The notes: generated by a model from the letters alone, not told the origin. Positions 3,062-58,965 are shown, counted from the stretch's first letter. The stretch: 64,000 bases of DNA from an uncultured Candidatus Saccharibacteria bacterium (GCA_964469335.1 CAYXYK010000002.1:189549-253548), one strand, 5' to 3'. Numbers and translations are program-made.

Positions 3062-3133
3062 GTGCCTTCTCCTCAAATGATGGAAAATGAAGTTCTGGCA
3101 CAAGTCTATTCAATACTTTAAAAACGCGCAAAT

Positions 3134-30588: not shown

Positions 30589-30589
30589 A

Positions 30590-30982: not shown

Positions 30983-31093
30983 GTAAAAATTATATCACGG
31001 AGCTGGCGAGCGCACAGCAATTCGGTTTTACAAAGTGCATACTTAGCTCCATACGTATCAATTCCCATATGTGTTAGTTCAGAAAAACAGTGA

Positions 31094-31960: not shown

Positions 31961-31981
31961 GAATATGCCCAGTGAGGGTTC

Positions 31982-33244: not shown

Positions 33245-33325
33245 ATGAAAACATCATAACAAAAGGTGGGTTTTTTCCAAAATATATGAAATTGAGACCG
33301 AGGAATTCCTCGGTCTCAAGGGGTC

Positions 33326-33646: not shown

Positions 33647-33786
33647 TTTGGTCTCCTTAGTGGCTTCAGTTACGGGAGATACGCTTCCGAGCAGATTAAT
33701 TCACGCAGAATCAGTGCTGTCAAGATTCACAGCGTTGTTTGAGGGTGTAGTTTCACTCTATATATACATGTAGTGATGAGCAAAGC

Positions 33787-34644: not shown

Positions 34645-34898
34645 CACAGATTGACGACATTGGGGTATGGCTCAACTCGACTGTCTACAATGCAGCGATG
34701 CAGGAAAAACTCGCTGATCAAAAGATCAATTTGGTCTTGAACTCCATCCGAAAGAAATGAGACGTGCTTCGGCACAACCGCGAGGCTGTGCTGTTCTTTC
34801 TTGCCAGTTCTCTGAAGCAAAACATGATCGTAGAAATAACTTTCACGCAGTGCTGGATTTGCAAAAATAATTTACGCGTGATACTCATATACAAAACT

Positions 34899-37109: not shown

Positions 37110-37132
37110 AAACCGCCCTCAGGCGGTTTTTT
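37108..37132. terminator. Bidirectional intrinsic terminator (AAAACCGCCCTCAGGCGGTTTTTT) between topA and the convergent small gene
   Basis: GC stem flanked by an A-tract and a T-tract. Confidence 0.7.
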
Positions 37133-37322
37133 CGACAGGGTGGATCATTGAGGCGAGACTAATGTAGTTCGCTATGACCCAAATAGCGGCGCATCCGACT
37201 ATGACAGAAACAAGGATGGCGAGCTCGGGGGAACGAAAGAAGACGTTCAATCCTGCGAGAATGATCAGAACGAAGCAGAGAAAGAGGTCAATCGTTCTTC
37301 CGATATGAGGCAGATAGTCCAT
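37119..37322 (-). CDS. Small two-TM membrane protein (67 aa)
   Basis: AAGGA 8 nt upstream of the ATG and two hydrophobic helices. Confidence 0.5.
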   Translation of the reverse strand: MDYLPHIGRTIDLFLCFVLIILAGLNVFFRSPELAILVSVIVGCAAIWVIANYISLASMIHPVEKTA

Positions 37323-37412
37323 GACAATTCCTTCTAGGAGAAGTTGATCTGAAACAAGTGTAAGGCTGGTGTTGCCATTGTCAAACCTTCTCTATTATGT
37401 TTCTATCAGGAA

Positions 37413-46577: not shown

Positions 46578-46619
46578 GTAAATTTCAACAAGAGAATATG
46601 CATGCAACGAAAGTTGCTG

Positions 46620-47684
46620 TTACGGTGCTTCCTTGTACTTGCGCTCGGGATCGTACTTCAGTTCAGTGACCCGGCGCACTTCACGACCATCCGGTAGTTT
46701 GAGCTGCTTGAACTGTGCCACCAGGTCGATCTGCTGAAGGATCAGATGTCGCAAATATTCATCGGTGTAGTTCACACTGCAGTCGGGATGTTGGCGCATG
46801 CGTGCCATCAACATCATGATCGCTCCATCGGCACTCTTGCCGTGAATGGTAGTGACCGCACCGGGGTGATCGGATCCAGTGCTCATCGCGTAGTCCCATG
46901 CTTCTGCACCGCGCAGCTCACCGAGGATGATCCGATCGGGGATCATCCGCAGCGACCCTTTCAACAGCTCAGTCATACCGATTGCGCTTTCTCCGCCATC
47001 AGTCTCGTACTTGAGATGCACATGGTTCGGTTGGCTCGGAAATCTAATCTCCCGCGCATCTTCCATCGAGATCAGACGTTCGCGTGGATCAATCAAGCTG
47101 AGTACCGCGTTCTGCAGTGTCGTTTTGCCGGAACCGGTCGCTCCGCTCAAGAGCATGGTAGTCTTTTCCTTGACCGCGAGTGGGAAAAATCGCTTTACCA
47201 GTCTTCTACCTTCTTCGACTCTTCCTTCGGCAAATGCTTTCTCGAACGCACGACTGAGTCCCAGAAGTTCTTCTTCGTGAGGACGAAGTGATGTAGGGGC
47301 ATCGCAGACCATGTCGAACAGTCCGTCGTCGGTGAGTTCGTCAAAGGTCCTGAACTTCGAGGAGGGTTTGCGGATCGCGAATGCCATAGTGTCGTTGTCG
47401 CAACTGGGCGGCTGAACGATGTACACTCGCTCCCCGGTCGGCAAGATCGCTGAGAGAAGAGACTTTTCGGTATCGAGCTTCCGGCGATTTTTCGCAGCGA
47501 TGTAGCGCGCGAGCTCTTTGCACTCGGCGAAAGTGAGCTCTGGCTTCTTGATCTCCGGCTGCCAGCCCATGTGGGTCTTAATGAACACCGAACCAGGCTG
47601 ATTGATACAGATGTCGGTGACATCGGCCCGACCGAGCTCCACCTTGAGGTGCTTCTCGAGACTCATTTCAAGGAGTTCACTCAT
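46620..47684 (-). CDS. virB11: Type IV secretion ATPase VirB11/TrbB
   Basis: Walker A LLSGATGSGKTT, Asp/His boxes and GELRGAEA; 354 aa. Confidence 0.85.
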   Translation of the reverse strand: MSELLEMSLEKHLKVELGRADVTDICINQPGSVFIKTHMGWQPEIKKPELTFAECKELARYIAAKNRRKLDTEKSLLSAILPTGERVYIVQPPSCDNDTMAFAIRKPSSKFRTFDELTDDGLFDMVCDAPTSLRPHEEELLGLSRAFEKAFAEGRVEEGRRLVKRFFPLAVKEKTTMLLSGATGSGKTTLQNAVLSLIDPRERLISMEDAREIRFPSQPNHVHLKYETDGGESAIGMTELLKGSLRMIPDRIILGELRGAEAWDYAMSTGSDHPGAVTTIHGKSADGAIMMLMARMRQHPDCSVNYTDEYLRHLILQQIDLVAQFKQLKLPDGREVRRVTELKYDPERKYKEAP

Positions 47685-47687
47685 GAT

Positions 47688-48809
47688 TCACTCCTTACTA
47701 CGCAGTCGATAGGCGTTGGAAAAGTCGAGGTCTTGCATGGCAATGATCGAAAGCCGTGCTCCTTGTTCCCTGGTAAGGACCGGGGGGATATCCTTGTACT
47801 GATCCAATACCTTTCCAGCTGTGTCGCGTGTCGCGTTGGCGCTATTGCCGAGCACCACGGTGGCACCTGAGCCAGTACCGTTTCCGCTTTTGTTGCTGAT
47901 CCCGACACTGAGGCTGTCGAGGAGCGCAAAGGCGAGCCCCGGGAGGAGTCGCTTCATGAAGCGTGCATCAACATGCCCTTCGATGCCTGGCTCACCGAGC
48001 TCGCTGGTGAACTGGGAACCAAGATCGATGAGGACGTGATCCGGTGTTTCAGCCCGTGCTGCAAGTGCGAACAACCGCTCTTGCCCGAGTGGCAGTGCGC
48101 CGACTTGATTACCGACGATCTTGGTGCCCCTTGGGAGGAGCACCATCTTCTTGTCAGCGCCATAGACATCAGTCGCAAGATCACAGGTGATCTGCCCAGG
48201 CACTTCGCTGTTGATCCGTACCTTTGAGAAACAGTCACCAAGTGGCGTACCTCGCGTGATGGTGTAGGTCGGATTGCGCATCACAGCCGCAAGCGCACCT
48301 GAAGGCTGTGTCGGCTTCATGCTGCCACCGAGACCACCGTCGCCGGAAGTGACGCCTCCGCCGCCGTTCGTCAGAACGGATGGCGATGACATGCGATCGG
48401 CATTCGGATTGCGTGGCTTCGGTGGGTCGACCTGGGTCGGGGCATATGACTTGTCGGCATTCGGGACCACGACGCCAATCGGCTGCGGGGTTGGGGTCGC
48501 CTCCTTCACCACTGGGATCGGCGGAGGAGGTGGCTTAAGGTCTTCCGGAAGATTCGCATCGAGACGTCGTTGAGTGGTCTGGATCTCTGGTTCCTTCTGT
48601 TGATGTTGGGGGCGATACCAGAACATGTAGTAGCAGAACGCCGTCACCAACAGGACGAAGATCGGGATCGCCAGCTTGAGGCGATCGTTGTGTTGTGCAC
48701 GAATGAGTGCGTCGGGACCGGAACGGTCGCCCGGGATCTCGACGTCATGCGATTCGACGTCGACGGGTTCCTCACGATTCCGCGAGGTCCTTCTTCGTTG
48801 AGCAGACAT
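47688..48809 (-). CDS. virB10: VirB10/TrbI-family T4SS protein
   Basis: N-terminal TM helix, a Pro-rich linker (PPPPPIPV...) and a C-terminal TrbI beta-barrel domain (GTKIVGNQVGALPLGQERLF...). Confidence 0.8.
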   Translation of the reverse strand: MSAQRRRTSRNREEPVDVESHDVEIPGDRSGPDALIRAQHNDRLKLAIPIFVLLVTAFCYYMFWYRPQHQQKEPEIQTTQRRLDANLPEDLKPPPPPIPVVKEATPTPQPIGVVVPNADKSYAPTQVDPPKPRNPNADRMSSPSVLTNGGGGVTSGDGGLGGSMKPTQPSGALAAVMRNPTYTITRGTPLGDCFSKVRINSEVPGQITCDLATDVYGADKKMVLLPRGTKIVGNQVGALPLGQERLFALAARAETPDHVLIDLGSQFTSELGEPGIEGHVDARFMKRLLPGLAFALLDSLSVGISNKSGNGTGSGATVVLGNSANATRDTAGKVLDQYKDIPPVLTREQGARLSIIAMQDLDFSNAYRLRSKE

Positions 48810-48912
48810 GTCACTCTCCTTTCGAGATGGTTGATGTGGCAGTGGTCAATCGAGACCTAGCCGTGGCCGAACGGTCGGCAAAGCGAGAAAACAGTGTAGA
48901 CATAACACGATT

Positions 48913-48996
48913 CTCCTTATTTCTGAACATAAAAAAGAACTCGTCTAGTTGGTACCTAGCCGAGTTCATCCTATCGAAATGTCCGGAATGTGCAAG
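48913..48996 (-). repeat. Copy R1 of a ~85-bp repeated module: -35/-10-like hexamers, terminator-like hairpin and AAGGAG
   Basis: Minus strand reads TTGCAC-16 nt-TAGGAT, GAACTCGG(loop)CGAGTTC, T6, ATGTTC..AAATAAGGAG. It fills the trbL-virB10 gap and is closely similar to R2 and R3. Confidence 0.7.
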
Positions 48997-49000
48997 CAAT

Positions 49001-50209
49001 TCAATCGTCGGGAACGAAGTCGATGCCGTTGTCGTGGTGGTCATCTTTGTCGTTACTTTTGTGGTCTTTGTCATAGCTGCGTTGTTGCGCAACATGATGT
49101 TTAACCGCCGATTCTGAGGAGTCAACATTGCTCGGGTCACGCGATGAGCGTCTAGAGCCTTCTCGTGCGGCACGTGCACGTGCCGCGGGGTCCCCTCTCT
49201 GTGCTCGACGTTCAGCGCGCGATGCCTGGGAAGCAGCTGCTCCGCTCCACGCCCTCTGCGCGGCTCCTCCGATTGCACCACCGACACCTGCTGCTGCTGC
49301 TCCAAGCCATCCCGCTCCGGTGGCAGCTGCAGTCTTTGCAGCGCCTCCAAGTGGACGGAAGACGTTCTTGTTCGCAGTTCCGAGTACGTTGGGTGTGATC
49401 AGATGCCAACCTCCAGCGACGCCACGAGTGATGAACTCGATCTGTCGAATGATGAGGTATGCAACGACACCGTTGAAGATCGCGGGCAAGAGTGCGGTCC
49501 AGCCATTCGACACATCTCCCTTGGCTGCTACGAGGCCTGCGATCCACATCGCGAACAAGAGATTTACTGCGATCCCGAGGAACAGAAACATCAGTACGTA
49601 GTTGAGTAGTTGTGTCACCCACCCCTCTGCGAGCTTCACTCCCCACGGGAACGCGAACAACCCTAGAAATAGCACTCCTGACGCAAGCAGCACACCGATG
49701 GCGAACTTGGTAAGCAGGATCAGTGCTGCCGAGATCGCACAGATGATCACAGTCCCCAACAGGACGATGAGTGCAGTGAGGTAGAGACCCAAGGCATCGG
49801 CAGGCTTCCATCCCGTCGCAAGATTCTTGAACGATACGGCGAGCTCGACTCCTTTGTCGAGGGCATCATCAATGACCATGTTGGGTGCTTTGGTCGCACC
49901 CTGGGTCATGACTGAGACCAGTTCACCGGGGATCGCGTAGATCGGGCCTGCCAAGACGGTACTGAACACCCCTGCTGCGAATGCAAGATAGACACAGAAG
50001 CCGACTTTGCACATCTTCCACAGCAAGGTCTCGATCGGGGTATGGATCACCCCGCGTGCGACTCCTATGCCGAACATCACGAACGAAAAGCCGAGCAATG
50101 TCGTGAACGGTCCGATCAGCGCTTTTGCAAGCGAGGACGCGCCGTATGCGACGAAGCCGACGATCGCTGTGTCGACGTAGTTGAAATAGTCACTGACAAG
50201 TGTTGACAT
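49001..50209 (-). CDS. trbL: VirB6/TrbL-family T4SS inner-membrane protein
   Basis: Polytopic membrane protein with the TrbL topology and a Gly/Ala-rich, then charged, C-terminal extension. Confidence 0.8.
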   Translation of the reverse strand: MSTLVSDYFNYVDTAIVGFVAYGASSLAKALIGPFTTLLGFSFVMFGIGVARGVIHTPIETLLWKMCKVGFCVYLAFAAGVFSTVLAGPIYAIPGELVSVMTQGATKAPNMVIDDALDKGVELAVSFKNLATGWKPADALGLYLTALIVLLGTVIICAISAALILLTKFAIGVLLASGVLFLGLFAFPWGVKLAEGWVTQLLNYVLMFLFLGIAVNLLFAMWIAGLVAAKGDVSNGWTALLPAIFNGVVAYLIIRQIEFITRGVAGGWHLITPNVLGTANKNVFRPLGGAAKTAAATGAGWLGAAAAGVGGAIGGAAQRAWSGAAASQASRAERRAQRGDPAARARAAREGSRRSSRDPSNVDSSESAVKHHVAQQRSYDKDHKSNDKDDHHDNGIDFVPDD

Positions 50210-50245
50210 CGTAGTTCTCCTTTCAGATGATCAGAGTGCTCGAGG

Positions 50246-50647
50246 TCAACGACCTTCTGCCTTTCTGTAGATAACTTTCGGAACGCTTGCGCTCTCTGCC
50301 GGAAAAAACGTCCGCGGTGCCGAGGCTGCTTTCGCATCTTCAAGCGCCGCATCTATGGTTGCCGTACTTTCACGACTCAGCTCTTCGATCTTCCTTAGAG
50401 TTGCATCCTTGTGGATGACGAACTTAGGCGCATTCCATTTTGGGAGCTCTGTGGGGAAACTGAAATATCCAACCATGATGAATGCAAGTCCGAGCAGCAC
50501 CATCACGGTTGCGAACAGTCGTCCTTGGGTATAGCGCGTGTTGCTGTGTCGGAGTGGAGCACCCTTGTCGCCATCGATCTCGATGATTCGCTCTCCCCCA
50601 TCCACACCAGTCGGTGTGGATGGGGATTCTTCACTGGTCGAGGTCAT
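50246..50647 (-). CDS. Small T4SS-associated membrane protein (133 aa, unknown family)
   Basis: Single TM helix, a GAGGAAG RBS, overlap with the trbG stop, and position between trbG and trbL. Confidence 0.5.
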   Translation of the reverse strand: MTSTSEESPSTPTGVDGGERIIEIDGDKGAPLRHSNTRYTQGRLFATVMVLLGLAFIMVGYFSFPTELPKWNAPKFVIHKDATLRKIEELSRESTATIDAALEDAKAASAPRTFFPAESASVPKVIYRKAEGR

Positions 50648-51498
50648 TTTGGCTTCCTCACTTCCTTTTCTGTGCCTGGGACCGAAGTCCCTGGGTAACT
50701 CACCGGGAGTGTTCGCTCGAGCGGATCCTCTCTTCGGATCACGGTCGCATATGCCATGCCTTTTCGGAGGACGAGGCGCATGACGACGCGCGGTACGACG
50801 ATGGTGTCGCCGTGCTGCACACTGGTGTCGACGCTGCTTTCGCTACCGTCGGCATTCCAGATGAAGACAACCGGGAGCTCTTGCTGTTTGTAGAAGCGCA
50901 AGAAGGTGAACGTGCCGTCGTCGTAGACTTCGGCGGGATCGTCTCCCTCAGTGTTCGGCATCGATTGCGCAGTGTAGCGGTAATTGCGCACTCGCGGGTC
51001 ATCGCTGTACCCTCGCAGATAGTTGAACCTCAGCACGTACGTCATCCCCTTCGCTTCGGCGGATGAGGCGATGCACTTGTTGACGCACTTGAGGGTGAAC
51101 AGGTAGGTACGCTTGTTGGTGATGATCACCGCGTTCGAGTCGACGTTCGACGGAAACGGCACATCGACTTCCTTGCCATCAGTTCCTTTCGTCTTCATAT
51201 CCCACTTGGGCTTGACCGTGAACTTGTTGCCAAGCTGACGGACTTCCCACGGCCCGATGAAACCGAGGCTCGACGACTTCTCGTCGATCACCTCGTCACC
51301 TTCGAGCTCCACGACCGTGATGAAACCGAAATACCCGTAGAGGGTCACGATCTTGTCGCGTTCGTAATTCTCGATGCGGATACGCGGATCTGACTTCGGC
51401 ACGTAGGGAGGTGGGGGTTTCTCTCCAGCTGCGTAAGCGGCAGAGAGGACGAGCGTGGCCAAGAGCGCCACGCAGATACGTTTGAGTAGATTACTCAT
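50644..51498 (-). CDS. virB9: VirB9/TrbG-family T4SS protein
   Basis: Signal peptide plus the two beta-sandwich domains characteristic of VirB9/CagX (YGYFGFITVVELEG...; TFLRFYKQQELPVVFIWNADGSE). Confidence 0.8.
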   Translation of the reverse strand: MSNLLKRICVALLATLVLSAAYAAGEKPPPPYVPKSDPRIRIENYERDKIVTLYGYFGFITVVELEGDEVIDEKSSSLGFIGPWEVRQLGNKFTVKPKWDMKTKGTDGKEVDVPFPSNVDSNAVIITNKRTYLFTLKCVNKCIASSAEAKGMTYVLRFNYLRGYSDDPRVRNYRYTAQSMPNTEGDDPAEVYDDGTFTFLRFYKQQELPVVFIWNADGSESSVDTSVQHGDTIVVPRVVMRLVLRKGMAYATVIRREDPLERTLPVSYPGTSVPGTEKEVRKPK

Positions 51499-52259
51499 TT
51501 GACGTCTTCCTTGTCGGTTGTGTGGCGGACCACTTGCAGTCGGAATGGGTTGACCAAGTTAGCTTCTTCACCTTGTTTTGCATCCTCGGCGAAGTAGTAC
51601 TCGATGGTCGCAACCTTGCGGACCTTCTTCGGTTCGGGTTGGGCCAAGCTTTTCTCCTCCTGCACGTAGTGCACGGACATCATCTTGGTCTTCGCCTTCG
51701 GGTCGGAAAGTACTGTCGGTTGCATATACAAGAACTCGAGCTTGATGTAGCCGGTTCCTTCTTCACCACCGTGAGTCGCGTACATCCCTTCTGGGTTGTC
51801 GTACTTGAAGTCTTTCACGAGAGAGTCGAGTGTTGGCCCGGCTTCGGCGAAGTATTTGCAGGTCTTGAACTGAATCTGGTGCCGTGATTGGTGATACTCC
51901 TCACGGCACTTGACCCATTGCCAAATGAACGAGTTGGTCGCGAGGTTGCGATACGTGCGATCGAAGTCCTTGATCGCGGTCACGTGGTCGACGACACCTT
52001 TCGAGTCGACGGTCATCAATATCGGTTGGGGTGCTTCCTTGAGACGGATCTCATAGAACGCGCTCATCGACGATATGACGGCGATCACGAACATGCCGAT
52101 TGCGACCCTGATGCTGATGCGCATCTTGTAGACCAAGAGCGCAATGACGCTGCGTTCGTGACTGTTGGCCGAGTTGAAGTACTTGAGTAGGTCGTCTGTC
52201 CCGACCGGCTGTTTTGCCGGTTCGACACTGACGTGCTTACGCCTGAAGAAACTGAACAT
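51495..52259 (-). CDS. virB8: VirB8/TrbF-family T4SS protein
   Basis: N-terminal TM helix plus an NTF2-like periplasmic domain; the size and motif pattern fit TrbF. Confidence 0.75.
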   Translation of the reverse strand: MFSFFRRKHVSVEPAKQPVGTDDLLKYFNSANSHERSVIALLVYKMRISIRVAIGMFVIAVISSMSAFYEIRLKEAPQPILMTVDSKGVVDHVTAIKDFDRTYRNLATNSFIWQWVKCREEYHQSRHQIQFKTCKYFAEAGPTLDSLVKDFKYDNPEGMYATHGGEEGTGYIKLEFLYMQPTVLSDPKAKTKMMSVHYVQEEKSLAQPEPKKVRKVATIEYYFAEDAKQGEEANLVNPFRLQVVRHTTDKEDVK

Positions 52260-52298
52260 GACGATCTCCTTGTCTAAAAAGTATGGTGCCGAGGCACA

Positions 52299-52469
52299 TT
52301 ACTTTTTCGCGGACACAGACGCTGCTGGGGTTACCGATTTCGGCGGTACCGGGCGCTTGTCGAGGTTGAGTTTGCGCTCCGGACCAGTCGGATAGGGAGC
52401 CTTCGGTGGCGTCGTGCATGCAGTGCACAAAGCGAACACGATCGAGGCAAAAACAAACTGTTTGCACAT
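52299..52469 (-). CDS. Small lipoprotein (VirB7/TrbH-like position), 56 aa
   Basis: MCKQFVFASIVFALCTAC TTPPKAPYPTGPERK...: a signal peptide with a Cys lipobox-like site. AAGGAG lies 9 nt upstream of ATG 52469. The track's N-terminal extension runs across repeat R2 and is rejected. Confidence 0.55.
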   Translation of the reverse strand: MCKQFVFASIVFALCTACTTPPKAPYPTGPERKLNLDKRPVPPKSVTPAASVSAKK

Positions 52470-52478
52470 GATTGCACA

Positions 52479-52560
52479 CTCCTTATTTGAGAACATAATA
52501 AAGAACTCGTCTAGAAACTCTACCAAGTTAATCCTAGCGAAATGAGGGAATTGTGCAAGC
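52479..52560 (-). repeat. Copy R2 of the repeated promoter/hairpin/RBS module
   Basis: Minus strand reads TTGCAC-16-TAGGAT, AACTTGG(loop)CGAGTTC (the stem is kept via a G-U pair), TTTATT, ATGTTCTCAAATAAGGAG, then the lipoprotein ATG. Confidence 0.7.
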
Positions 52561-52765
52561 AAATCTGCCCTGAAATGGGGTTTTCAGAAATAGATGAAAA
52601 TTGAGGATACAAGGAAGCAACACTTCCTTGTTGTGCGCCTCCTATTTTAATGATGCTTACGACTAGAAGCAGTGGAAAAGTCCGCTTTTCATTTAAAATT
52701 CCATAAAAAGGCCCTCCGTCCCAGAAACTGGGAGGAGGGGGCGTTTCTTTCGACCATGTAGGTCC

Positions 52766-53500
52766 TTACTTGCCGTAGACGACCTTTGGGGCCGGTCGTT
52801 GATCCATCTTCATCAGCATGTCGGATTGCATCTGGACGAGCTGTTCTTGACTGGCCCGATTGGCTTCGGCGAGCGCGTAGAGTCGGATCTGCTCGTTAAG
52901 GAGCATGTTCTGCTGAGCCTGGATACGGGCCTGCAGTTCGCCGATCGACTTGGCATCGTCGGTCGTGCCGATGGCTTCGACCAATTGCTTGTTGGTCTTC
53001 ACCCGATTCACGGCAGCAGTTTGCGCGGCATCACTGGTTGCGCGCATCCCTGCGAGTTGGTTGACCCGCTCTTTCCAGATCCGTGCGGACTCGGTACCCA
53101 TGTCGCCGCCGAAGGTGTCATTGGTCAGGCTGGTGACTTCGCCACGCAGACGTTCGACCACTTTGGCGAGCCGTGCAGATTCGCCGACTGCATCACGCGC
53201 ACCGATCATGCTGGCGCGGGCATCGGGAGGAAGGTAGTCGAAATTCGAGTTCTCGAACTCGCCCATCAAGAGCTTCTCGAAGCCGCGCTTGCCGGTGACT
53301 TGCTCGTACATCTGCTTGGCCTGCTGGAGCTGCTTGATCAGCGTCTCGTACTGCTTGATGTATTCGGCCATCGCCTTGGCTGCCTCGGCAATACGCAGCA
53401 CGTTCGAAGGGGCATCGTGTACCGGCCAGACCGCCAGCGAACTGGTGACAGCGGCGAAGAACAATGCGACAGCCAATGCGAAGTTTCGCAATTTGAACAT
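52766..53500 (-). CDS. trbJ: TrbJ/VirB5-family T4SS protein
   Basis: Signal peptide and a long coiled-coil helical protein of 244 aa. AAGGAG lies 7 nt upstream of the ATG. Confidence 0.7.
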   Translation of the reverse strand: MFKLRNFALAVALFFAAVTSSLAVWPVHDAPSNVLRIAEAAKAMAEYIKQYETLIKQLQQAKQMYEQVTGKRGFEKLLMGEFENSNFDYLPPDARASMIGARDAVGESARLAKVVERLRGEVTSLTNDTFGGDMGTESARIWKERVNQLAGMRATSDAAQTAAVNRVKTNKQLVEAIGTTDDAKSIGELQARIQAQQNMLLNEQIRLYALAEANRASQEQLVQMQSDMLMKMDQRPAPKVVYGK

Positions 53501-53506
53501 GACGAT

Positions 53507-53590
53507 CTCCTTGAAAACATGAAAAAAAGAACTCGGTTTGGGGTTTAGCCAACACCGAGTTCATGTTATCGAATGCGTCAAAATGTGCAA
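53507..53590 (-). repeat. Copy R3 of the repeated promoter/hairpin/RBS module
   Basis: Minus strand reads TTGCAC-16-TAACAT, GAACTCGGTGTTGG(loop)CCAAACCGAGTTC, T7, CATGTTTTCAAGGAG, then the trbJ ATG. Confidence 0.7.
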
Positions 53591-53626
53591 GTTGCTTGAT
53601 CGGAGGTTTTCGTGTTACCGAATCCC

Positions 53627-56038
53627 TCAGCCTTTCTTCTTTCTCCTACGATGGAAGATCGGAAGCCACAGTTCGGGATCGGAACCGACATCTGCGATGA
53701 TCTCTTCGACAAGGAGTGTGTGCTCCGCGGACGATGACAGCACTGCGAGATCGTCATCCATGCCGGCAAGGTCGAGCAATACCACTCCTGAGACATCACC
53801 CTGCTTGATGAACACAAGGTGCGAATTGAGCGGTAGCGACTTTATGGTCATGAACTCCGCCTCACTGAGCTCGAACCCGTTCACGTACTCCTTCATCTTG
53901 GCCGACGGATTGGGCAGGAAGACCTTGGTGGCGAAACCGTCGATGATGGTCGGAAAGATGACGCTCCCCACGGCATCAGCTGCGCTCTGTGTCGCGACGA
54001 TGAAGAACCAGTTCTGACTCCGAGTCGTCTTCGTGCGCTTCTTGAACTCCGTAACGAAGAACTCATCGTCAAGCGCGCGCCAGAACTCATCGATGATGGT
54101 GAACATTCTCCCCTGCCCGATCAAGAGCTGCATGCGGTAGAAGAGGTACATCATCAGCGGCTGACGGATACCCTTGTTCTCGATGAACTGCGTCATGTCG
54201 AAGCCGGTCAATTGGTCCGGACGAAAATCGATGCCATCAACTTCGTTGTCGAACAACCACGCCTTCGATCCTTCACCGAACCACTGCGACAGTCGCTGTC
54301 CAAGTTGTTCATCGATGTTGATCGATTCGGACAACTTGTTGATCCGACGCGATGCCTTCGGCAACCTGAACACCGAGGTGATCGCGTCGCCGAGTTGCAT
54401 GCTCTCCTTGACCGTGAGCGGGGGGCCACCGTCATCTTCGAGCATGCTCTGAAGCAGCACCTTGAGGAACTCGATGTTTTCGGAAGTCCCATCGAGCTGG
54501 AACGGATTGAAGCCGGTCTTTTCGCCGTTTTTCAAGACGAAGTAGTCGCCCTTCGCCGCACGGATACCGATCTCCATCCCGCGCTTGTAATCGAACACGA
54601 TCCCTTTGGCAGCGAACTGCTTCAGGTGCAAAGCGAGGAAGGTCAGAAACACCGTCTTCCCTGAGCCGATGGGGCCGACCACGAGCGCATTGCCGACATC
54701 CGCGACGTGGAAGTTGTAGTCGTACGGATCGCCTGACGCGGTCCGCAGCATCGCCACGGATTCGCCCCAGTGATTCCCCGAGCGCTTGCCACGCATGTAG
54801 CGGTGGAAGGACGTGAGCCCACACCAGTTGAGGCTGGTGATCGGCACTTGGCGCGGATTGAGCTTCATGTTGCCCGGCAGTTGTGACCACCAGGCTGCCG
54901 CGAGTCCGAGCCATTCACGCTTCGCAATGAATCCGCCATCAGAGAGCACTCCGCGGGCCTTCGCGAGGTTGAGATTCACCTCCTCGGCATTCGCACCCTT
55001 CACAACGAGTGAGCCGTGATACATGCCCATGTCGAACTTGCGAGCAGTGAGGTCGTTGAGCGCGCCACCTTCGCCGCGTCGGGTGATCTCCTCGACTTGC
55101 GAGCCGGCATCGTCTTCGGTCTGCTCCAGGTGGATACCGTAGAGTTTCATCATCTTCTTCGCCTTCTCACGCGGAAGTAGTGCGAACGATTGCGTGAAGA
55201 CGAACTCGAACGGAAGCGCCAACAGATCATCGAGATGCCCAGGGCCTGAACTCATCGGGTATTCTTCGATGCCGAGTGCGGCGACATAGACTGAATCGTC
55301 TCCGTGGATGACACCGAGCGTATGACGGAAGATGGGTCGTGCCGCGAGCAAGGTGTCGCAGATGTTGTCGTGGGTAAGCGGCACCCGTTGATCGAAACCG
55401 TTGGCGATGTAGTGATACAGCTCGAGCTGTTCAGAAAAGACGTTGCCATTGAGGTCGTAGGTCGTGAGTGACTGAAGCTTGAAGTGCTTGAGGCCGGCCT
55501 CGAGTGCACGAGTCACTTCGTCGAAGTCTTCGAGTGCGATTGCGTCTTCTTCTTGTAGCTGGGCAGGGGTCATCTTGCTCGAACGTGCCGATAAGGGGCC
55601 GACACCACCATCGCTCATGCGATAGACGACCGAGAGGTAGTGTGTGCTCTCGTGAAGCTGGATGTCCGCCAGGTTCTCCGCATATCGACGATTGAGATCA
55701 TCAGGGTAACCCGGTTCGAACTTCCTCCGTGGTGATTCACCCGAACGCCGACGCAAGAGATGCGTATAGAATGTCAGCCTGCCATCAGCGATGCCGTTCA
55801 CCACACGTATAGTGTGGTTGAGCGCGTTGTGGAATGCATTCAACATGTCATCCTCAACACATTCGAATGGAACTCCGGTGACGTAGTAGGTGCGGACGAA
55901 GTCGCCTTCTTGAGTCCGAATGGTGCGGTCATCGACCAGTACCTGGAACGGGATATCCTTGTCTGCGGATATCTCGTATCGCTCGAGCACAGCCGGTGAT
56001 GGCGTGCGTAAGAGCAGTCCTTGCAGAAGTGCACTCAT
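53627..56038 (-). CDS. virB4: Type IV secretion ATPase VirB4/TrbE
   Basis: 803 aa; Walker A VVGPIGSGKTVF, Walker B MFTIIDEFW and the VirB4 C-terminal motifs. Confidence 0.9.
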   Translation of the reverse strand: MSALLQGLLLRTPSPAVLERYEISADKDIPFQVLVDDRTIRTQEGDFVRTYYVTGVPFECVEDDMLNAFHNALNHTIRVVNGIADGRLTFYTHLLRRRSGESPRRKFEPGYPDDLNRRYAENLADIQLHESTHYLSVVYRMSDGGVGPLSARSSKMTPAQLQEEDAIALEDFDEVTRALEAGLKHFKLQSLTTYDLNGNVFSEQLELYHYIANGFDQRVPLTHDNICDTLLAARPIFRHTLGVIHGDDSVYVAALGIEEYPMSSGPGHLDDLLALPFEFVFTQSFALLPREKAKKMMKLYGIHLEQTEDDAGSQVEEITRRGEGGALNDLTARKFDMGMYHGSLVVKGANAEEVNLNLAKARGVLSDGGFIAKREWLGLAAAWWSQLPGNMKLNPRQVPITSLNWCGLTSFHRYMRGKRSGNHWGESVAMLRTASGDPYDYNFHVADVGNALVVGPIGSGKTVFLTFLALHLKQFAAKGIVFDYKRGMEIGIRAAKGDYFVLKNGEKTGFNPFQLDGTSENIEFLKVLLQSMLEDDGGPPLTVKESMQLGDAITSVFRLPKASRRINKLSESINIDEQLGQRLSQWFGEGSKAWLFDNEVDGIDFRPDQLTGFDMTQFIENKGIRQPLMMYLFYRMQLLIGQGRMFTIIDEFWRALDDEFFVTEFKKRTKTTRSQNWFFIVATQSAADAVGSVIFPTIIDGFATKVFLPNPSAKMKEYVNGFELSEAEFMTIKSLPLNSHLVFIKQGDVSGVVLLDLAGMDDDLAVLSSSAEHTLLVEEIIADVGSDPELWLPIFHRRRKKKG

Positions 56039-56093
56039 GGCAATCTCCTTGTTGAGTGGAAATGAAAAGTGGGGAGCGATTGCTCCCCACCGT

Positions 56094-56423
56094 TTACTTG
56101 CGTAGCTTGCGCTGCCGCATCATGGGCGAGCGTGTGTCACCTTTCCAGTACAGCCGCAGTCGTAGCGGACAACGCCCACCGGTGATGATCCACAAGTAGA
56201 GCATCCGATAGATGCGCCGATCGAACTTCTCGATCACAAGACTGAGCCCGATCAGTACGAAGAACAGCACGATGCCGTAGAACGGGTTCGGAAACAGCCA
56301 GCCGAGAAAACCGAGCGTCAGTGCCGCGATGATCATCGACGAGATGAACGCTCCATACGAAACGCCCATCATTGTTGCCGATCTGGTGAAGCCGACGTAG
56401 AGGGTGTCTTCTTGGAGCGCCAT
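56094..56423 (-). CDS. virB3: VirB3/TrbD-family T4SS protein
   Basis: ~109 aa after the start-site correction (MALQEDTLYVGFTRSATMMGVSYGAFISSM...), with two TM helices. Confidence 0.7.
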   Translation of the reverse strand: MALQEDTLYVGFTRSATMMGVSYGAFISSMIIAALTLGFLGWLFPNPFYGIVLFFVLIGLSLVIEKFDRRIYRMLYLWIITGGRCPLRLRLYWKGDTRSPMMRQRKLRK

Positions 56424-56424
56424 T

Positions 56425-56745
56425 TCAGCCCGCTCCGAGCGAGACCGCTTGGTTCGCAAGCCAGGTTGCGGCGCCGACGATGACACCGCCGCCGAGGATC
56501 AGGAAGAAGAAGCCCTTCGACATGTGGCCGGTCCAGAGGAGGAGACCACCGAGTGCGAGGCCGAACGCCAGGATCGGGATGATCACCTCGGGAGGCAGCA
56601 TGTTCGCGAAGAACTTCGAGAGTCGGTTGATGAACGGCGTGTTGCTCTGGGCAGCGGCACTCTCGCTCACGAAGATGAGCGCAGCACAGACGAGGCTGGC
56701 GTAGAACTGCGAGGATCGTTGCTTGAGTTGGGCAGTTGTGGTCAT
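56425..56745 (-). CDS. virB2: VirB2/TrbC-family pilin-like protein
   Basis: Long signal/leader followed by two hydrophobic helices (IIPILAFGLALGGLLLW...FFFLILGGGVIVGAATWL). GGAG RBS. The start was corrected from the track ORF. Confidence 0.65.
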   Translation of the reverse strand: MTTTAQLKQRSSQFYASLVCAALIFVSESAAAQSNTPFINRLSKFFANMLPPEVIIPILAFGLALGGLLLWTGHMSKGFFFLILGGGVIVGAATWLANQAVSLGAG

Positions 56746-56891
56746 GAGATTTGCTCCGTTGGTTGAGTGAAGAGAAAAGACGGACCAGAAGGAAGGTTGT
56801 TTCATGTCAGCACCTCATAAGGTTGAACGTTGCAGAAAATTACATGCTCATGCGTTTGCCCTTTCTGAGGCACGTGAACAGACTGATTCGA

Positions 56892-57572
56892 TCATCCGCT
56901 ATAGCGTTTGGGGACAGCGATGTACACTTTCCCCGCATAACCATTCGCGATTCCTCTCGAGAAGTTGCCTGCGTTGTAGCACGACAGTGCGGCTGCGAGC
57001 ACTCGCTGTTTCTCGTCATAGCTGAGCATGTGCTCACTCCGACGATACAGTTTCTGTGCTGCAGGTTTGTAGCACCAATCGACCAATACGATCTCGGCAA
57101 CGCGCAAGTTACTGCACGTGTCGAACAGGTCTTCGAGCGTGACGCCTAGCTTGGCGAGATTATTCGAATTGACTTGCGCCGCTCCGACATCGATGGAGAA
57201 GCCCTTGAGCTTCCCGTAGGTGTCGAGCAGATACTTCGCAGTCACGACCGCTTCCGCTTTCGTGCGCGGTGGATGCTTGAGACGCCACTTGCCGTAGTTG
57301 ATGCCTATCGCATAGGCATTCCATCTCGACTCAGTGTAGGTCAATTGATCCATCGTCTTCATTCCGATGCGTGGTGCGCAGGTACTCATCAGCTCTGATG
57401 TATTCTGCACAACTCCACCAGGGAGTATGCGAGCAGACACATAAGCACGCGGAGGAGAACCCTCACTTCCATTTGCTGGTTTCGTGAACGACAGAGAGAC
57501 GGCGAGAGCCAACATGACGAACCGCGCGTTCGCATGCATACTCTTTTGGAGTGCAGAGAACACAGCGGCCAT
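56892..57572 (-). CDS. virB1: VirB1/TrbN-like lytic transglycosylase
   Basis: SLT-like motifs (YTESRWNAYAIGINYG, DVGAAQVNSNN, AEIVL) and a signal peptide. Start at ATG 57572 with AAGGA upstream. Confidence 0.7.
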   Translation of the reverse strand: MAAVFSALQKSMHANARFVMLALAVSLSFTKPANGSEGSPPRAYVSARILPGGVVQNTSELMSTCAPRIGMKTMDQLTYTESRWNAYAIGINYGKWRLKHPPRTKAEAVVTAKYLLDTYGKLKGFSIDVGAAQVNSNNLAKLGVTLEDLFDTCSNLRVAEIVLVDWCYKPAAQKLYRRSEHMLSYDEKQRVLAAALSCYNAGNFSRGIANGYAGKVYIAVPKRYSG

Positions 57573-57808
57573 ATGTTTCCTTTCGACTAAATTTCCGGAA
57601 TAGTCCGTGGGCAATGCGTCGTGTGCACATTTGACAAAGAACTACAGCTAGTTTCCTATTCCCAGTCTAATCACAGGGATTCATTAGTAAAGTTGACATA
57701 TTATAAATATGTTTTATCGACTATCCACAAGCTGACTCACTCGCTCAGGAGAGCATTTCTGGATGAAAAACCCGCACCAGATGTTGGCGCGGGTGAACGA
57801 AATACATG

Positions 57809-58609
57809 TCAGGAAGCTGTAGTGGCTACCGGAGGACTCGCAGTCCCCCTGAAGGCCGCAACAACTGACGGAGAAAGGGAGTCTGCGATCGAGCTCGGGA
57901 GTATCACGGTGTTGTTGGACGCTGAGTTTGCCATCTCGCGAAGTGCTTGCAGTTGCCGGAGTTGGAGTGCTCCTGGCGTGAGCAATGCTGCTGCTCGATT
58001 GAGGGCTTCGGCCACCTTCACTTCAACCTCAGAAAGCGTGAGGGACGCGGCGGCATTTGCAGTCGCGCGTGCTTTCGCAGAGATCGAGGCGGCGATGTCA
58101 GGATCAGCGATTTTGAGGTCGTCGATCTCGAAGGCGACAATCTCAAAGCCCCATACTTTCACCTTCTCCTCAAGGGCATCGCGGATGGTCTTGGAGAACT
58201 TGGTCCGTTCCTGGACTTCCTCGAGTGAGGAGTGACCAAGAGCTTCGAGCACTGCGGTGCGAGCTCGATCCTCGAGTGCCCCTTCTGCATCGGTGACTTC
58301 TACCGAGTAGTCGCGCACATTTATCACCCTGCGTGTGAGCATCAGGTCGAGCAAAAGCCCGACTTTGTCTGAAGTCTGACCTTCTGCCTCGATGGGAACG
58401 ACGATGTCTTTGACCGAGACCCGGGGCAATTTCCTGCACAGCACCCAGTCGATGAATGTGGGGCCAGGTCCTGCGGTGTACCAATAACGTCCAAGAATGA
58501 GGATCGGAACGCGGTCCCATTCGTTGATGACCGTGAATGCGAGAGCAGCCCAAAACACGAGTGCAGCCAAGAGACCATAGAGAACGTATTCCATTTCTCT
58601 CTCCTTCAT
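57809..58609 (-). CDS. SPFH/Band-7 (stomatin/HflKC-like) membrane protein
   Basis: N-terminal TM helix plus an SPFH core (VGLLLDLMLTRRVINVRDYSVEV...LEAL...) and an Ala-rich coiled-coil tail. It is the last gene of the GC-rich island. Confidence 0.75.
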   Translation of the reverse strand: MKEREMEYVLYGLLAALVFWAALAFTVINEWDRVPILILGRYWYTAGPGPTFIDWVLCRKLPRVSVKDIVVPIEAEGQTSDKVGLLLDLMLTRRVINVRDYSVEVTDAEGALEDRARTAVLEALGHSSLEEVQERTKFSKTIRDALEEKVKVWGFEIVAFEIDDLKIADPDIAASISAKARATANAAASLTLSEVEVKVAEALNRAAALLTPGALQLRQLQALREMANSASNNTVILPSSIADSLSPSVVAAFRGTASPPVATTAS

Positions 58610-58732
58610 AAAAAGAAGTTAAAGAACCAGTGAGATGACACCAAACGTGCTGTTTGCAAGTCTAGCACTCACGAGTAAATTGCCAAGCAGTAGATTGATT
58701 TTCCACTTTTTTTTGATAGACTGCTCCTACAT

Positions 58733-58813
58733 GCCGGAGTGGCGGAATGGTAGACGCGCACGACTCAAAATCGTGTTCAGCAATGAGTGAGGGTTCAAGT
58801 CCCTCCTCCGGCA
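58733..58813 (+). tRNA. tRNA-Leu (anticodon CAA), type II with a long variable arm
   Basis: Acceptor GCCGGAG/CTCCGGC, a 3-bp D-stem with GG loop, anticodon stem CACGA/TCGTG with loop CTCAAAA, long variable arm, T-arm GAGGG/CCCTC and A73 discriminator. Confidence 0.8.
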
Positions 58814-58965
58814 CATTTGAAAAATCAGCCCGCTGGGGCGATTTTTCATATGTGACGGGAAGGACGCACCTGCGTGCTCCCGTGAGGGATTTGAAATACT
58901 TTTCGTTATCAAGTCTGCGAGATCGAATGATGAAAAAGAGCGCCACTGGCGCTCTGGTTCATTTC

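Follow-up and report, generated by a model that had tools for sequence, protein, structure and literature searches.

Predicted horizontal acquisition of a complete diderm-type type IV secretion cluster, with a stomatin-like SPFH gene of its own, in a parB/tRNA-Leu(CAA) hot spot of a Paceibacteria-type CPR genome

The type IV secretion systems (T4SS) usually found in CPR bacteria form a Patescibacteria-specific clade inside the monoderm MPF_FATA class and lack VirB7, VirB9 and VirB10 (PMC12102498). These native systems are chromosomal and relaxase-less, contain TrsD/PrgI-like parts, are presumed to function in host interaction, and are often encoded near replication-origin genes (PMC12102498); according to work cited in the same survey, the native Saccharibacteria T4SS is essential for epibiotic growth. 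The survey assigns 2 of 2,474 CPR VirB4 proteins to MPF_T, and describes two MPF_T clusters in which VirB2, 3, 5, 6, 8, 9, 10 and 11 are present, one having a coupling protein (T4CP) and a MOB relaxase beside virB4, the other residing in a genome with a T4CP elsewhere (Quinonero-Coronel et al. 2025, PMC12102498). The survey authors ascribed both to independent horizontal acquisition and regarded their functionality as unknown; one of the two may be the present genome. Outside the CPR, a full VirB1–B11 complement is characteristic of R388 Trw and of Agrobacterium VirB/Rhizobiales AvhB-type MPF_T systems, whereas Brucella VirB, Bartonella Trw and Bordetella Ptl are chromosomal VirB-type machines without a coupling protein, which serve host interaction through two-step effector secretion or adhesive pili as opposed to conjugation (PMC12857230).

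The present cluster was examined within a 64,000-nucleotide stretch of DNA, referred to here as the window. The host is a Paceibacteria-type CPR bacterium: relatives of its SerRS and ParB proteins carry the names Patescibacteria, Minisyncoccia or Lloydbacteria, and the gene order SerRS-DprA-TopA-RelA-ParB-...-MiaA is common to dozens of Paceibacteria species representatives. The features of the locus are as follows.

38902-40029, minus: parB, conserved left-hand anchor (Pfam ParB domains; synteny in dozens of Paceibacteria)
40035-58731: interval between parB and tRNA-Leu(CAA), 18.7 kb, missing at the junction in sister species
46552-46577, minus: terminator hairpin 3' of VirB11, coinciding with the left cassette breakpoint
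46557-58731: GC-rich, strain-variable cassette with A-type VirB1-11 and the SPFH gene
46620-47684, minus: VirB11 ATPase, 354 aa (Walker A GATGSGKT; PF00437)
47688-48809, minus: VirB10/TrbI (PF03743), with N-terminal TM segment, Pro-rich linker and C-terminal barrel
48889-49002, minus: repeated promoter/5'-UTR unit, copy 1, upstream of VirB10 (repeat search)
49001-50209, minus: VirB6/TrbL (PF04610)
50246-50647, minus: orphan protein, 133 aa, single TM segment, between VirB9 and VirB6
50644-51498, minus: VirB9/CagX (PF03524, E 1e-37), signal peptide
51495-52259, minus: VirB8 (PF04335, E 1e-14)
52299-52469 (most likely extent), minus: VirB7-like lipoprotein, 56 aa, MCKQFVFASIVFALCTAC/TTPP...RKLNLDKRP, ATG behind an AAGGAG ribosome-binding site
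52455-52565 and 53555-53597: further copies of the promoter/5'-UTR unit, upstream of VirB7 and VirB5, respectively
52766-53500, minus: VirB5 pilus-tip protein (PF07996, E 8e-23; TIGR02791)
53627-56038, minus: VirB4 ATPase, 803 aa (PF03135)
56094-56423, minus: VirB3, 109 aa (PF05101), extent as called in L001/L002
56425-56805, minus: VirB2/TrbC pilin (PF04956, E 2e-9)
56892-57572, minus: divergent VirB1-like lytic transglycosylase (PF01464, SLT, weak)
57809-58609, minus: stomatin-type SPFH/Band_7 membrane protein (PF01145; stomatin E 2e-18)
58733-58814, plus: tRNA-Leu(CAA), conserved anchor on the right; the SPFH gene starts ~125 bp away

VirB1 to VirB11, including the VirB7-like lipoprotein, form an unbroken minus-strand series of intact genes between 46620 and 57614, and the order B1-B2-B3-B4-B5-B7-B8-B9-x-B6-B10-B11 is as given in the first-pass annotation, which had likewise named each of these genes and the SPFH gene. 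The mixture of VirB and Trb arrangements that it had perceived is, on the other hand, an artefact of Pfam family naming, the best NCBIfam matches all being to VirB models. VirB11 scores 274.6 bits against TIGR02788 and passes the curated cut-off of 249.95; VirB4 matches R388 TrwK over its full length (E 7e-139), is 38% identical to a Rhizobiales plasmid VirB4, and with TIGR00929 gives 640.3 versus 643.1 bits; the VirB1 match to NF010438, the VirB1 model, falls under the cut-off (E 4e-19). VirB10 aligns end to end with R388 TrwE (residues 88-391, E 1.8e-34), with the antenna helices kept and their region free of deletions. The Cys and PYP..R-x-x-N motif of the VirB7-like protein is conserved in small ORFs at the equivalent position in L003, L108, L112 and L009, and a terminator hairpin follows VirB5. 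The cluster is an MPF_T, VirB/Trw-like system of the kind found in double-membrane bacteria, with a full outer-membrane core, and not the T4SS type of epibiotic CPR bacteria to which it had earlier been likened, which is nested in MPF_FATA and is without VirB7/9/10 (PMC12102498). Its sole rearrangement relative to R388, Agrobacterium and AvhB systems is the placement of VirB6 after VirB9, behind the 133-aa orphan, instead of after VirB5; the VirB6 C-terminal tail is also long (~110 aa, as compared with L003) and hydrophilic. The orphan has no match in Pfam or NCBIfam and, among 1.84 billion representatives, matched its own cluster only, although L003 encodes a weakly similar 126-aa protein at the equivalent position.

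The windowed GC and tetranucleotide profile is not flat, in keeping with the higher GC content that had been claimed relative to the flanks: the GC content is 0.554 in the T4SS genes and 0.563 in the SPFH gene as opposed to 0.481 ± 0.015 in the rest of the window (4-kb windows), a difference of ~4.6 SD for the island, and the tetranucleotide correlation to background is 0.63 in the island and 0.866 ± 0.052 elsewhere. The compositional island is real, and the chromosome that bears it is a CPR one. Most of its T4SS genes have GC3 values of 0.61-0.76, far from the value of about 0.5 in host genes, which suggests that its arrival was rather recent; most of the selection signal described below might in principle have built up elsewhere.

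The cassette lies in a recombination hot spot between parB and tRNA-Leu(CAA). In sister species with ParB 85-89% identical, parB directly adjoins tRNA-Leu, indicating that 18.7 kb are inserted in the window; in blastn comparisons, L105/L106/L107 (ParB 85%), L101/L103 (89%) and L019 jump from ~40034-40044 to 58732 or 58963. Sites are empty in L101/L103/L104 (ParB 89%), L113 (87%), L105-L107 (85%), L019, L016 and L041, the junction being empty also in more distant Paceibacteria, and T4SS genes occur at none of 80 MiaA loci from species representatives. The cluster is not, then, the syntenic core that would have spoken against an island, and is accessory. An island at 46600-58610 had been proposed initially; the cassette is real, but comparison with sister species shows a larger insertion (40035-58731), which besides the T4SS and SPFH genes contains those for MetRS, an APH-like protein, a PLP-decarboxylase, a nucleotidyltransferase and an aminotransferase. 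The locus shares deviant composition, a tRNA neighbour, empty sites, strain-specific cargo and mosaic flanks with tRNA-linked islands, but differs in that the window shows neither an integrase nor direct repeats. tRNA-Leu does lie beside the island, as first noted, yet it is the 5' end that faces it and not the 3' end. No repeat of either tRNA-Leu end was found within the window, including the direct repeat of the 3' end that had been anticipated, and classical tRNA 3'-end integration geometry is not present there.

Alternative cassettes occupy the same place in relatives. The conspecific L091/L092 match the window at 98% nucleotide identity over 28901-46556, and then carry a different Band_7 and VirB11/B10/B9 cluster (31% identity to the SPFH protein, 43% to VirB11 and 37% to VirB10). 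A third version is found in L109 (ParB 92%), whose Band_7 and VirB10/11 proteins share 79% and 54-55% identity, respectively, with those of the L091 type. The cassette appears to be exchangeable: in the conspecific strain and in the close relative, other VirB and SPFH cassettes take up its position in the same orientation. The window's cassette type also lies beside this tRNA in L108, a contig from a distant Paceibacteria host, with the order MiaA(56%)-Prx(69%)-tRNA-Leu-SPFH(60%)-B1-B2-B3-B4(54%)-B5-B7-B8, and 17 nt of the tRNA 3' end recur there without a mismatch; such att-like repeats were seen in relatives only (L108, L019), and that in L108 suggests that site-specific integration took place at the tRNA at an earlier time. 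L003, L004 and L108 have only intact ORFs, and relatives with intact clusters show VirB4 identities of 54-64%. Between conspecific strains, pS in the PLP-decarboxylase, nucleotidyltransferase and aminotransferase genes is 0.09-0.36, as against 0.01-0.03 in core genes; the region adjoining the junction is a hyper-divergent mosaic, which points to homologous recombination in conserved or semi-conserved flanks as the main route by which cassettes may move between related CPR genomes.

The SPFH gene has its own promoter-like site and terminator. It is a member of the cassette: the SPFH copy of L108, an A-type relative, also adjoins VirB1, and B-type cassettes each have their own Band_7 gene. In Agrobacterium the T4SS is located in SPFH-marked membrane domains (PMC8656257), and the SPFH protein here is probably a membrane scaffold for assembly.

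The reported lack of a coupling protein, relaxase and integrase was upheld and extends to the whole 64 kb, since 48 ORFs, nearly every one in the window that reaches 150 aa, were scanned against Pfam and gave no VirD4, relaxase, integrase or recombinase. In the canonical relatives L005 and L009 (~40% identical) VirD4 lies directly 3' of VirB11, and L009 has a relaxase as well, whereas no VirD4 follows VirB11 in the window or in L091, L109 and L112; the T4CP-less architecture is recurrent, in at least three divergent cassettes. With respect to selection, comparison of the window with L002 over 10.9 kb gave Sd 53, Nd 25, pS 0.0205, pN 0.0030 and pN/pS 0.147 for this one strain pair, consistent with purifying selection on the T4SS cluster. 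With a ratio of 0.15 between two strains sharing it, the cluster looks like a maintained, exchangeable accessory organelle, and a decayed ICE, suggested at first, is disfavoured by this value, by the intactness of all genes and by the recurrence of the T4CP-less arrangement.

Compared with the two surveyed MPF_T clusters, the present one has no T4CP or relaxase in the island or window and a linked SPFH gene, and is set apart by its hot spot, by the other cassettes that conspecific and related strains carry there, and by purifying selection. It also lacks the VirD4/TrwB, relaxase and oriT of R388, Agrobacterium and AvhB systems, and resides in a CPR host believed to have no outer membrane; like native CPR clusters near replication-origin genes, it lies beside parB. 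Unlike Bartonella Trw it shows no tandem pilin or VirB5 duplications, and unlike Bordetella Ptl it has VirB1 and VirB5; moreover, no known effectors are encoded nearby, and the host is an environmental CPR bacterium instead of a proteobacterial pathogen. The preferred reading, to which a probability of about 0.6 is assigned, is that of an exchangeable, selected MPF_T and SPFH cassette in a parB/tRNA-Leu(CAA) hot spot, dedicated to partner contact rather than self-transfer. A VirB2/VirB5 pilus and envelope-spanning channel, powered by VirB4 and VirB11, would serve contact with a partner or host cell by adhesion or T4CP-independent secretion, in the manner of Brucella VirB or Bartonella Trw; the function is probably that of a pilus or of contact-dependent partner interaction. 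A CPR bacterium with a tiny genome possesses a complete Gram-negative-style T4SS that is swapped for another version in a strain of the same species.

It is conceivable, though rather unlikely, that the cluster is instead a mating-pair-formation module with coupling protein, relaxase and oriT supplied in trans, or an immobilised ICE remnant still transferring DNA. Its nearest relatives outside the CPR context (VirB4 ~40%) are classical conjugative VirB/D4 clusters, one with a relaxase, the equivalog model hit by VirB11 is that of the 'P-type DNA transfer ATPase', and the repeat in L108 speaks for past site-specific integration; VirD4-like proteins, moreover, are commonly encoded far from virB4 in CPR genomes (PMC12102498). 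Nevertheless, the 64 kb are devoid of any T4CP, relaxase, integrase or att repeat, four divergent cassettes lack VirD4 directly after VirB11, where canonical relatives have it, relaxases are rare in CPR (109 in 3,035 genomes; PMC12102498), and the flank pattern is that of homologous replacement as opposed to excision and integration. Less probable again is that a Gram-negative neighbour passed on the cluster recently in a dead-end transfer, and that it is now a non-functional passenger, unable to assemble in a cell lacking an outer membrane, which has simply not decayed so far. CPR bacteria are thought to be without an outer membrane (PMC12102498), which makes it hard to see how a VirB7/9/10 core would be assembled and what it might span; GC and GC3 are un-ameliorated, most relatives lack the cluster, and T4SS of the diderm type, whose functionality the survey authors could not judge, are very rare in CPR (PMC12102498). 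However, the pN/pS value of a strain pair that differs by 53 synonymous changes, the intactness of all 12 T4SS genes and the SPFH gene here and in relatives, the occurrence of this cassette type at this locus even in a host whose MiaA is only 56% identical, the several different diderm-type cassettes kept at the locus within one genus-level clade, and the repeated internal promoter units with good ribosome-binding sites all favour a maintained partner-contact cassette.

A ComB-like DNA-uptake or -release machine feeding the competence pathway is improbable. ComB systems also lack a T4CP (PMC12857230), CPR bacteria need external nucleotides, and DprA is encoded at 33787-34644, 12 kb from the cluster; DprA, though, belongs to the conserved core synteny outside the island, VirB11, VirB5 and VirB1, all missing from ComB systems, are present here, and VirB10 scores 153 bits with the VirB10 model versus 46.5 with ComB10. 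An assembly or binning artefact, in which a proteobacterial T4SS contig was fused to a CPR contig, is highly improbable. Composition contrasts sharply with the flanks and short assemblies often end at the cluster borders, yet L002, an independent Logan assembly from a different run, spans 43626-58760 at 98%, both junctions included and unbroken from the PLP-decarboxylase through T4SS and SPFH to tRNA-Leu. L001 is 100% identical over 9.9 kb, L108 provides an independent junction of this cassette type with CPR Prx and MiaA, and CPR–T4SS junctions are present in four more assemblies, L091/L092 and L109/L110.

Open reading frame listing and Pfam/NCBIfam scans of the window revealed that the genes from VirB1-like to VirB11, together with one encoding an SPFH protein, form a single contiguous set on the minus strand, confirming the first-pass annotation's description of a T4SS gene set beside tRNA-Leu. 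The features are as follows:

46620-47684, minus strand: VirB11 (TIGR02788, above the curated cut-off)
47688-48809, minus strand: VirB10 (PF03743)
49001-50209, minus strand: VirB6 (PF04610, above the Pfam cut-off)
50246-50647, minus strand: orphan of 133 aa with a single TM segment
50644-51498, minus strand: VirB9 (PF03524)
51495-52259, minus strand: VirB8 (PF04335, above the Pfam cut-off)
52299-52469, minus strand: VirB7-like small lipoprotein of 56 aa (position and motif)
52766-53500, minus strand: VirB5 (PF07996, above cut-off)
53627-56038, minus strand: VirB4 (PF03135)
56094-56423, minus strand: VirB3 (PF05101, above the Pfam cut-off)
56425-56805, minus strand: VirB2 pilin (PF04956, above cut-off)
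56892-57572, minus strand: VirB1-like divergent transglycosylase (weak SLT match)
57809-58609, minus strand: SPFH protein, stomatin-type (stomatin E 2e-18)
58733-58814, plus strand: tRNA-Leu(CAA)

Genes for a pilus and a channel are present as a complete set, which includes two ATPases, and every protein of the cluster is apparently intact with respect to signal peptides, TM segments, Walker A motifs and the Pro-rich linker of VirB10. The VirB1-like protein scored 17.9 bits against SLT and 69 bits, under cut-off, against NF010438. Because no HMM exists for VirB7, the small lipoprotein (MCKQFVFASIVFALCTAC/TTPP...RKLNLDKRP), the ATG start of which is preceded by an AAGGAG site, was identified by its position and by a Cys plus N-x-x-x-R motif common to small ORFs at the equivalent position in relatives. 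VirB6 of A-type cassettes, i.e. those with the VirB1-11 plus SPFH arrangement of the window, ends in a C-terminal tail of ~110 aa, in which Ala, Gly, Arg, Ser, His and Asp are abundant and which is present also in L003, a relative carrying such a cassette. The 133-aa orphan has no relatives outside its own cluster among 1.84 billion representative proteins. VirB2 and VirB5 are single copies in the island, and Pfam/NCBIfam scans detected no recognisable effector or toxin gene there.

The cluster is organised as several transcription units, with hairpin terminators 3' of VirB5, SPFH and VirB11. A promoter/5'-UTR-like unit of ~45-110 nt, with the pattern TTGCAC-N16-TAGGAT ... CTAGACGAGTTCTTT..ATGTTC..AAGGAG, occurs three times (48889-49002, 52455-52565 and 53555-53597), upstream of VirB10, VirB7 and VirB5 respectively; the first copy also starts a 30-codon ORF, which ends at the VirB10 ribosome-binding site. 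The presence of three such copies suggests that the VirB10, VirB7 and VirB5 sub-operons may be under coordinated regulation.

The components present are those of MPF_T, the diderm VirB/Trw class. VirB4 is of the VirB4/TrwK type, aligning at full length with R388 TrwK (residues 25-800, E 7e-139) and scoring 640.3 bits against TIGR00929, 3 bits short of the cut-off of 643.1, with far weaker scores for the TrbE, TraC and CedB models. The inner-membrane platform (VirB3, VirB6, VirB8) is encoded, as is an outer-membrane core of VirB9, VirB10 and the VirB7 lipoprotein, the last by position and motif, and VirB11, VirB2, VirB5 and, by weak matches, VirB1 are present in addition. VirB10 aligns end to end with TrwE, including the antenna helices, which span the outer membrane. 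The mixed VirB/Trb arrangement proposed at first pass was rejected, since NCBIfam VirB models outscored the Trb models for VirB4, VirB9, VirB10 and VirB11.

In a neighbour-joining VirB4 tree with database matches as taxa, the window protein and matches P0001-P0004 form an A-type clade adjoining other VirB-type clades. Close relatives of VirB4 were few in database searches (99, 64, 63, 54 and 44% identity), the next tier, at ~40%, belonging to the classical conjugative VirB/D4 clusters L005 and L009; further tiers include proteins named Steroidobacteraceae (~36% identical) and a Rhizobiales plasmid VirB4 (38%). A VirB4 scan of GTDB species genomes returned no match; the GTDB species representatives include neither the window genome nor a T4SS of its type.

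A recent survey placed 2,425 of 2,474 Patescibacteria VirB4 proteins in a clade of their own inside the monoderm MPF_FATA class, the systems of which are essentially without VirB7, VirB9 and VirB10 (Quinonero-Coronel et al. 2025; PMC12102498). In that survey, just two Patescibacteria VirB4 proteins are of the MPF_T class, one with a T4CP and relaxase adjacent, and Gram-negative-type T4SSs in CPR bacteria are treated as isolated accidents of unknown functionality (PMC12102498). Judged on sequence, the window cluster would fall into this very rare category. It departs from the native, MPF_FATA-derived clade in gene content and in its nearest VirB4 relatives, in that an outer-membrane core is present, those relatives, as given by database searches, are VirB/Trw-type, and the Pfam scan found no TrsD-like gene in the cluster. 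The first-pass suggestion of a host-interaction T4SS like those of epibiotic CPR bacteria therefore holds in part: the host-interaction type is viable, but the parallel in class is wrong, the native systems linked to epibiotic growth being monoderm-derived and the window cluster belonging to the diderm class.

The compositional profile was far from flat. GC is 0.554 for the T4SS and 0.563 for SPFH, versus 0.481 +/- 0.015 in 4-kb windows outside them; tetranucleotide profiles correlate with the background at 0.63 in the island and 0.866 +/- 0.052 elsewhere, and GC3 is 0.61-0.76 versus ~0.5 in host genes; the high-GC island noted at first pass is real. The CPR host guessed at first pass was also correct, given that the named relatives of SerRS and ParB are Patescibacteria, Minisyncoccia and Candidatus Lloydbacteria, and that the order o288-SerRS-DprA-TopA-RelA-ParB-(tRNA-Leu CAA)-(Prx)-MiaA is conserved in dozens of Paceibacteria/Parcubacteria. 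When window proteins were compared by tblastn with 80 MiaA loci of GTDB species representatives, T4SS genes were found within 10 kb of none (0/80), and in three distant Paceibacteria (L019, L016 and L041) parB and tRNA-Leu are separated by 57-125 bp. Closer relatives, located via ParB, have the order ParB-tRNA-Leu-Prx-MiaA; these sister species are L101/L103/L104 (ParB 89% identical), L113 (GCA_043717905.1, 87%) and L105-L107 (GCA_031973135.1, 85%). The cluster is thus not a syntenic core of all relatives. Indeed, blastn alignment of the sister loci with the window skips from ~40034 to 58732, which leaves 18.7 kb of window sequence (40035-58731) without a counterpart at these loci. The segment encodes MetRS, an APH-like protein, a PLP-decarboxylase, a nucleotidyltransferase and an aminotransferase in addition to the T4SS and SPFH. 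Deviant composition, a conserved junction that is empty in relatives and alternative content elsewhere together mark the locus as a genomic island of the hot-spot cassette kind.

That alternative content is illustrated by two conspecific contigs from other samples, L091 (JGI 3300045353) and L092 (SRR12487046), in which ParB is 100% identical and nucleotide identity to the window is 98% over 28901-46556. Homology ends at the terminator hairpin after VirB11, beyond which lies a different cluster (GC 0.57). Its products, with identities to their window counterparts, are a Band_7 protein (31%, compared with SPFH), VirB11 (341 aa, 43%), VirB10 (363 aa, 37%) and VirB9. A related B-type cassette occurs in L109/L110 (GCA_964367955.1, ParB 92%; GC 0.55 in the island, 0.487 in the core) in the order ParB-Band_7-aaRS-GT3-ADH-aaRS-HIT-VirB11-VirB10-VirB9-VirB8; relative to L091 its Band_7 protein is 79% identical but VirB10 and VirB11 just 54-55%. 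A stomatin-like membrane protein is accordingly linked to the T4SS in two divergent cassette families. Conversely, the A-type cluster, its odd gene order unchanged, was found in L003/L004 (VirB4 63%, GC 0.555; contigs without visible flanks). In L108 (VirB4 54%), a far more distant member of the Paceibacteria, it occupies this very locus, in the order MiaA(56%)-Prx(69%)-tRNA-Leu(CAA)-SPFH(60%)-B1-B2-B3-B4-B5-B7-B8.

Comparison of the window with L002 (SRR21621035), a second strain with the A-type cassette, revealed 53 synonymous and 25 non-synonymous differences across 10.9 kb of T4SS and SPFH coding sequence (pS 0.0205, pN 0.0030, pN/pS 0.147, from one strain pair), which is indicative of purifying selection. 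An initial reading of this low divergence, that the cassette is younger than its flanks, was dropped, because the core genes ParB, RelA, TopA, SerRS and MetRS have a pS of 0.01-0.03 versus L091, making the T4SS pS of 0.02 ordinary core divergence among conspecific strains. The abnormally divergent part is instead the flank, where the PLP-decarboxylase, nucleotidyltransferase and aminotransferase genes (43301-46448) show a pS of 0.09-0.36 among conspecific strains; this region is a recombination mosaic adjoining the cassette junction. The aminotransferase is poorly conserved, a JGI metagenome scan returning one distant match. The nucleotidyltransferase (44764-45420) has a weak match, at 26.5 bits under the cut-off, to MntA-type antitoxin adenylyltransferases, and no partner toxin gene was noticed. 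The closer ParB (L091, 100%) accompanies a different cassette and the farther ParB (L002 contig, 98%) the A-type; strain-level exchange is thereby shown. Together with the mosaic flank, this incongruence fits an inferred route in which related CPR genomes replace one cassette with another through homologous recombination.

Searches of the window for repeats of the 5' or 3' end of tRNA-Leu (23-mers allowing at most 3 mismatches, and a 17-mer allowing at most 2), which included the direct repeat of the 3' end suggested at first pass, and a general repeat search for plausible direct or inverted repeats bounding the island, were all negative there. Att-like repeats of the tRNA-Leu(CAA) 3' end do occur ~150 bp downstream of the tRNA in L108, as a perfect 17-nt direct repeat between tRNA and SPFH (1690-1706 and 1857-1873), and in L019, a relative with an empty site, at 16/17 identity (8615-8631 and 8769-8785). 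L108 and L101 also carry the tRNA unit in inverted orientation compared with the window, L105, L019 and L113. The tRNA thus appears to bear the marks of old site-specific recombination events, although the window contains no such mark.

Genes for self-transfer were likewise missing. A Pfam scan of 48 window ORFs, which took in nearly every ORF of 150 aa or more, returned housekeeping genes (including TGT, ThyA, DHFR, PGI, DnaX, Dus, SerRS, DprA, TopA, RelA/SpoT, ParB, MetRS, MiaA and Alr) and, in agreement with the first-pass annotation, no VirD4, relaxase or integrase in the 64-kb window. As regards a conjugative element, a relaxase (MOB domains were scanned) with oriT and an integrase or recombinase with flanking att repeats were not found in the window, nor was a T4CP (VirD4/TraG) in island or window; cognate substrate-recruitment and DNA-processing genes are hence absent within the window. 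VirD4 lies directly 3' of VirB11 in L005 and L009, the latter additionally having a relaxase, whereas it is absent behind VirB11 in the window, L091, L109 and the further T4SS contig L112, indicating that a T4CP-less architecture is common to these cassettes. In this the window cluster resembles, within 64 kb, the coupling-protein-less Brucella VirB, Bartonella Trw and Bordetella Ptl systems; known substrates and amplified variable pilus genes, also expected of host-interaction systems, were not found.

Several explanations could account for these features. The reading that we favour, and rate as more likely than not, is that this is an accessory, exchangeable machine in which VirB2 and VirB5 would form a pilus joined to an envelope channel. 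It would probably serve contact with partner cells, either as an adhesive structure or through secretion that needs no T4CP; Brucella VirB and Bartonella Trw are the models for this (PMC12857230). The SPFH protein may act as a membrane scaffold; in Agrobacterium the VirB system is located in SPFH-marked membrane domains, although its association there is independent of SPFH proteins (PMC8656257). The role of a VirB7/9/10 outer-membrane core in a lineage thought to have no outer membrane is a standing difficulty. A bolder reading, to which a probability of roughly one in five is attached, is that a Paceibacteria lineage has domesticated outer-membrane-type T4SS cassettes, possibly acquired from Gram-negative neighbours or hosts, as swappable cell-contact organelles, with strain-level switching at parB/tRNA-Leu setting partner specificity or reflecting an arms race. 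On this view, the core might be built in an envelope that has no conventional outer membrane, or might engage that of a partner that is Gram-negative, and the linked stomatin-like protein could help assembly as a factor specific to the lineage.

A conjugative module served in trans is an unlikely but serious competitor: VirD4-like proteins of CPR genomes are usually encoded far from virB4 (PMC12102498), so that a T4CP could be supplied from elsewhere, against which stands the absence of VirD4, relaxase and integrase from all 64 kb. The decayed ICE suggested at first pass is disfavoured by the intact proteins and the pN/pS of 0.147, and a passenger yet to decay seems a decidedly doubtful proposition. 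A ComB-like DNA-uptake system is improbable in the extreme, being contradicted by VirB11, VirB5 and VirB1 in the cluster, and VirB10 scores 153 bits with the VirB10 model versus 46.5 bits with ComB10. Misassembly can scarcely be entertained, given that L002 runs unbroken at 98% identity from PLP-decarboxylase through the entire T4SS and SPFH to tRNA-Leu (window 43626-58760), that L001 (SRR12404947) is 100% identical across 9.9 kb, and that every alternative arrangement was seen in two independent assemblies. The first-pass observation is therefore confirmed and its interpretation partly supported. The locus represents a family of T4SS cassettes of diderm type that lack a T4CP and are linked to SPFH; within a CPR clade, the family is polymorphic at one defined hot spot.

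CPR bacteria, which account for much of bacterial diversity, live mostly attached to other microbes. To our knowledge, how they contact and exploit their partners is largely unknown, the sole T4SS type tied to this lifestyle being monoderm-derived. A CPR clade in which a Gram-negative-type T4SS appears to be kept intact under purifying selection, coupled to SPFH and swapped at one chromosomal site, provides a concrete case for asking two things: whether a cell presumed to have no outer membrane can make use of an outer-membrane core complex, within itself or from itself outwards, and whether accessory secretion cassettes set partner range. Both empty and filled alleles are defined at the locus, for use in population studies or experiments.

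Some features of the neighbouring DNA and of relatives were also recorded. T4SS cassettes are recurrently linked to aminoacyl-tRNA synthetase cargo: in L109 (3865-8759) two class-Ib enzymes with GT3, ADH and HIT, all at GC 0.55, lie beside VirB11 in the island, and in L112 (10925-13549) a class-II enzyme and PurD adjoin VirB11. The window MetRS gene (40447-42138; GC 0.60, GC3 0.73, far over host values) is located inside the parB/tRNA-Leu gap, where sister species have none. Many short conspecific assemblies end within the gene, and from 40864 onwards L093 no longer follows the window but has a PheT/FKBP/CzcB-like context. This synthetase may vary among strains or have been replaced by horizontal transfer. 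In L113, just past Alr, a large serine recombinase of 583 aa (1948-3699), accompanied by several small ORFs, looks like a separate integrated element, absent from the window. Finally, ~8 kb past MiaA, in a region whose counterpart falls beyond the window, the sister species L101 (1-2792) and L105 (1-1600) have a gene for a haem-copper oxidase with COX1 and COX_ARM domains, respiration of this kind being uncommon among CPR bacteria.
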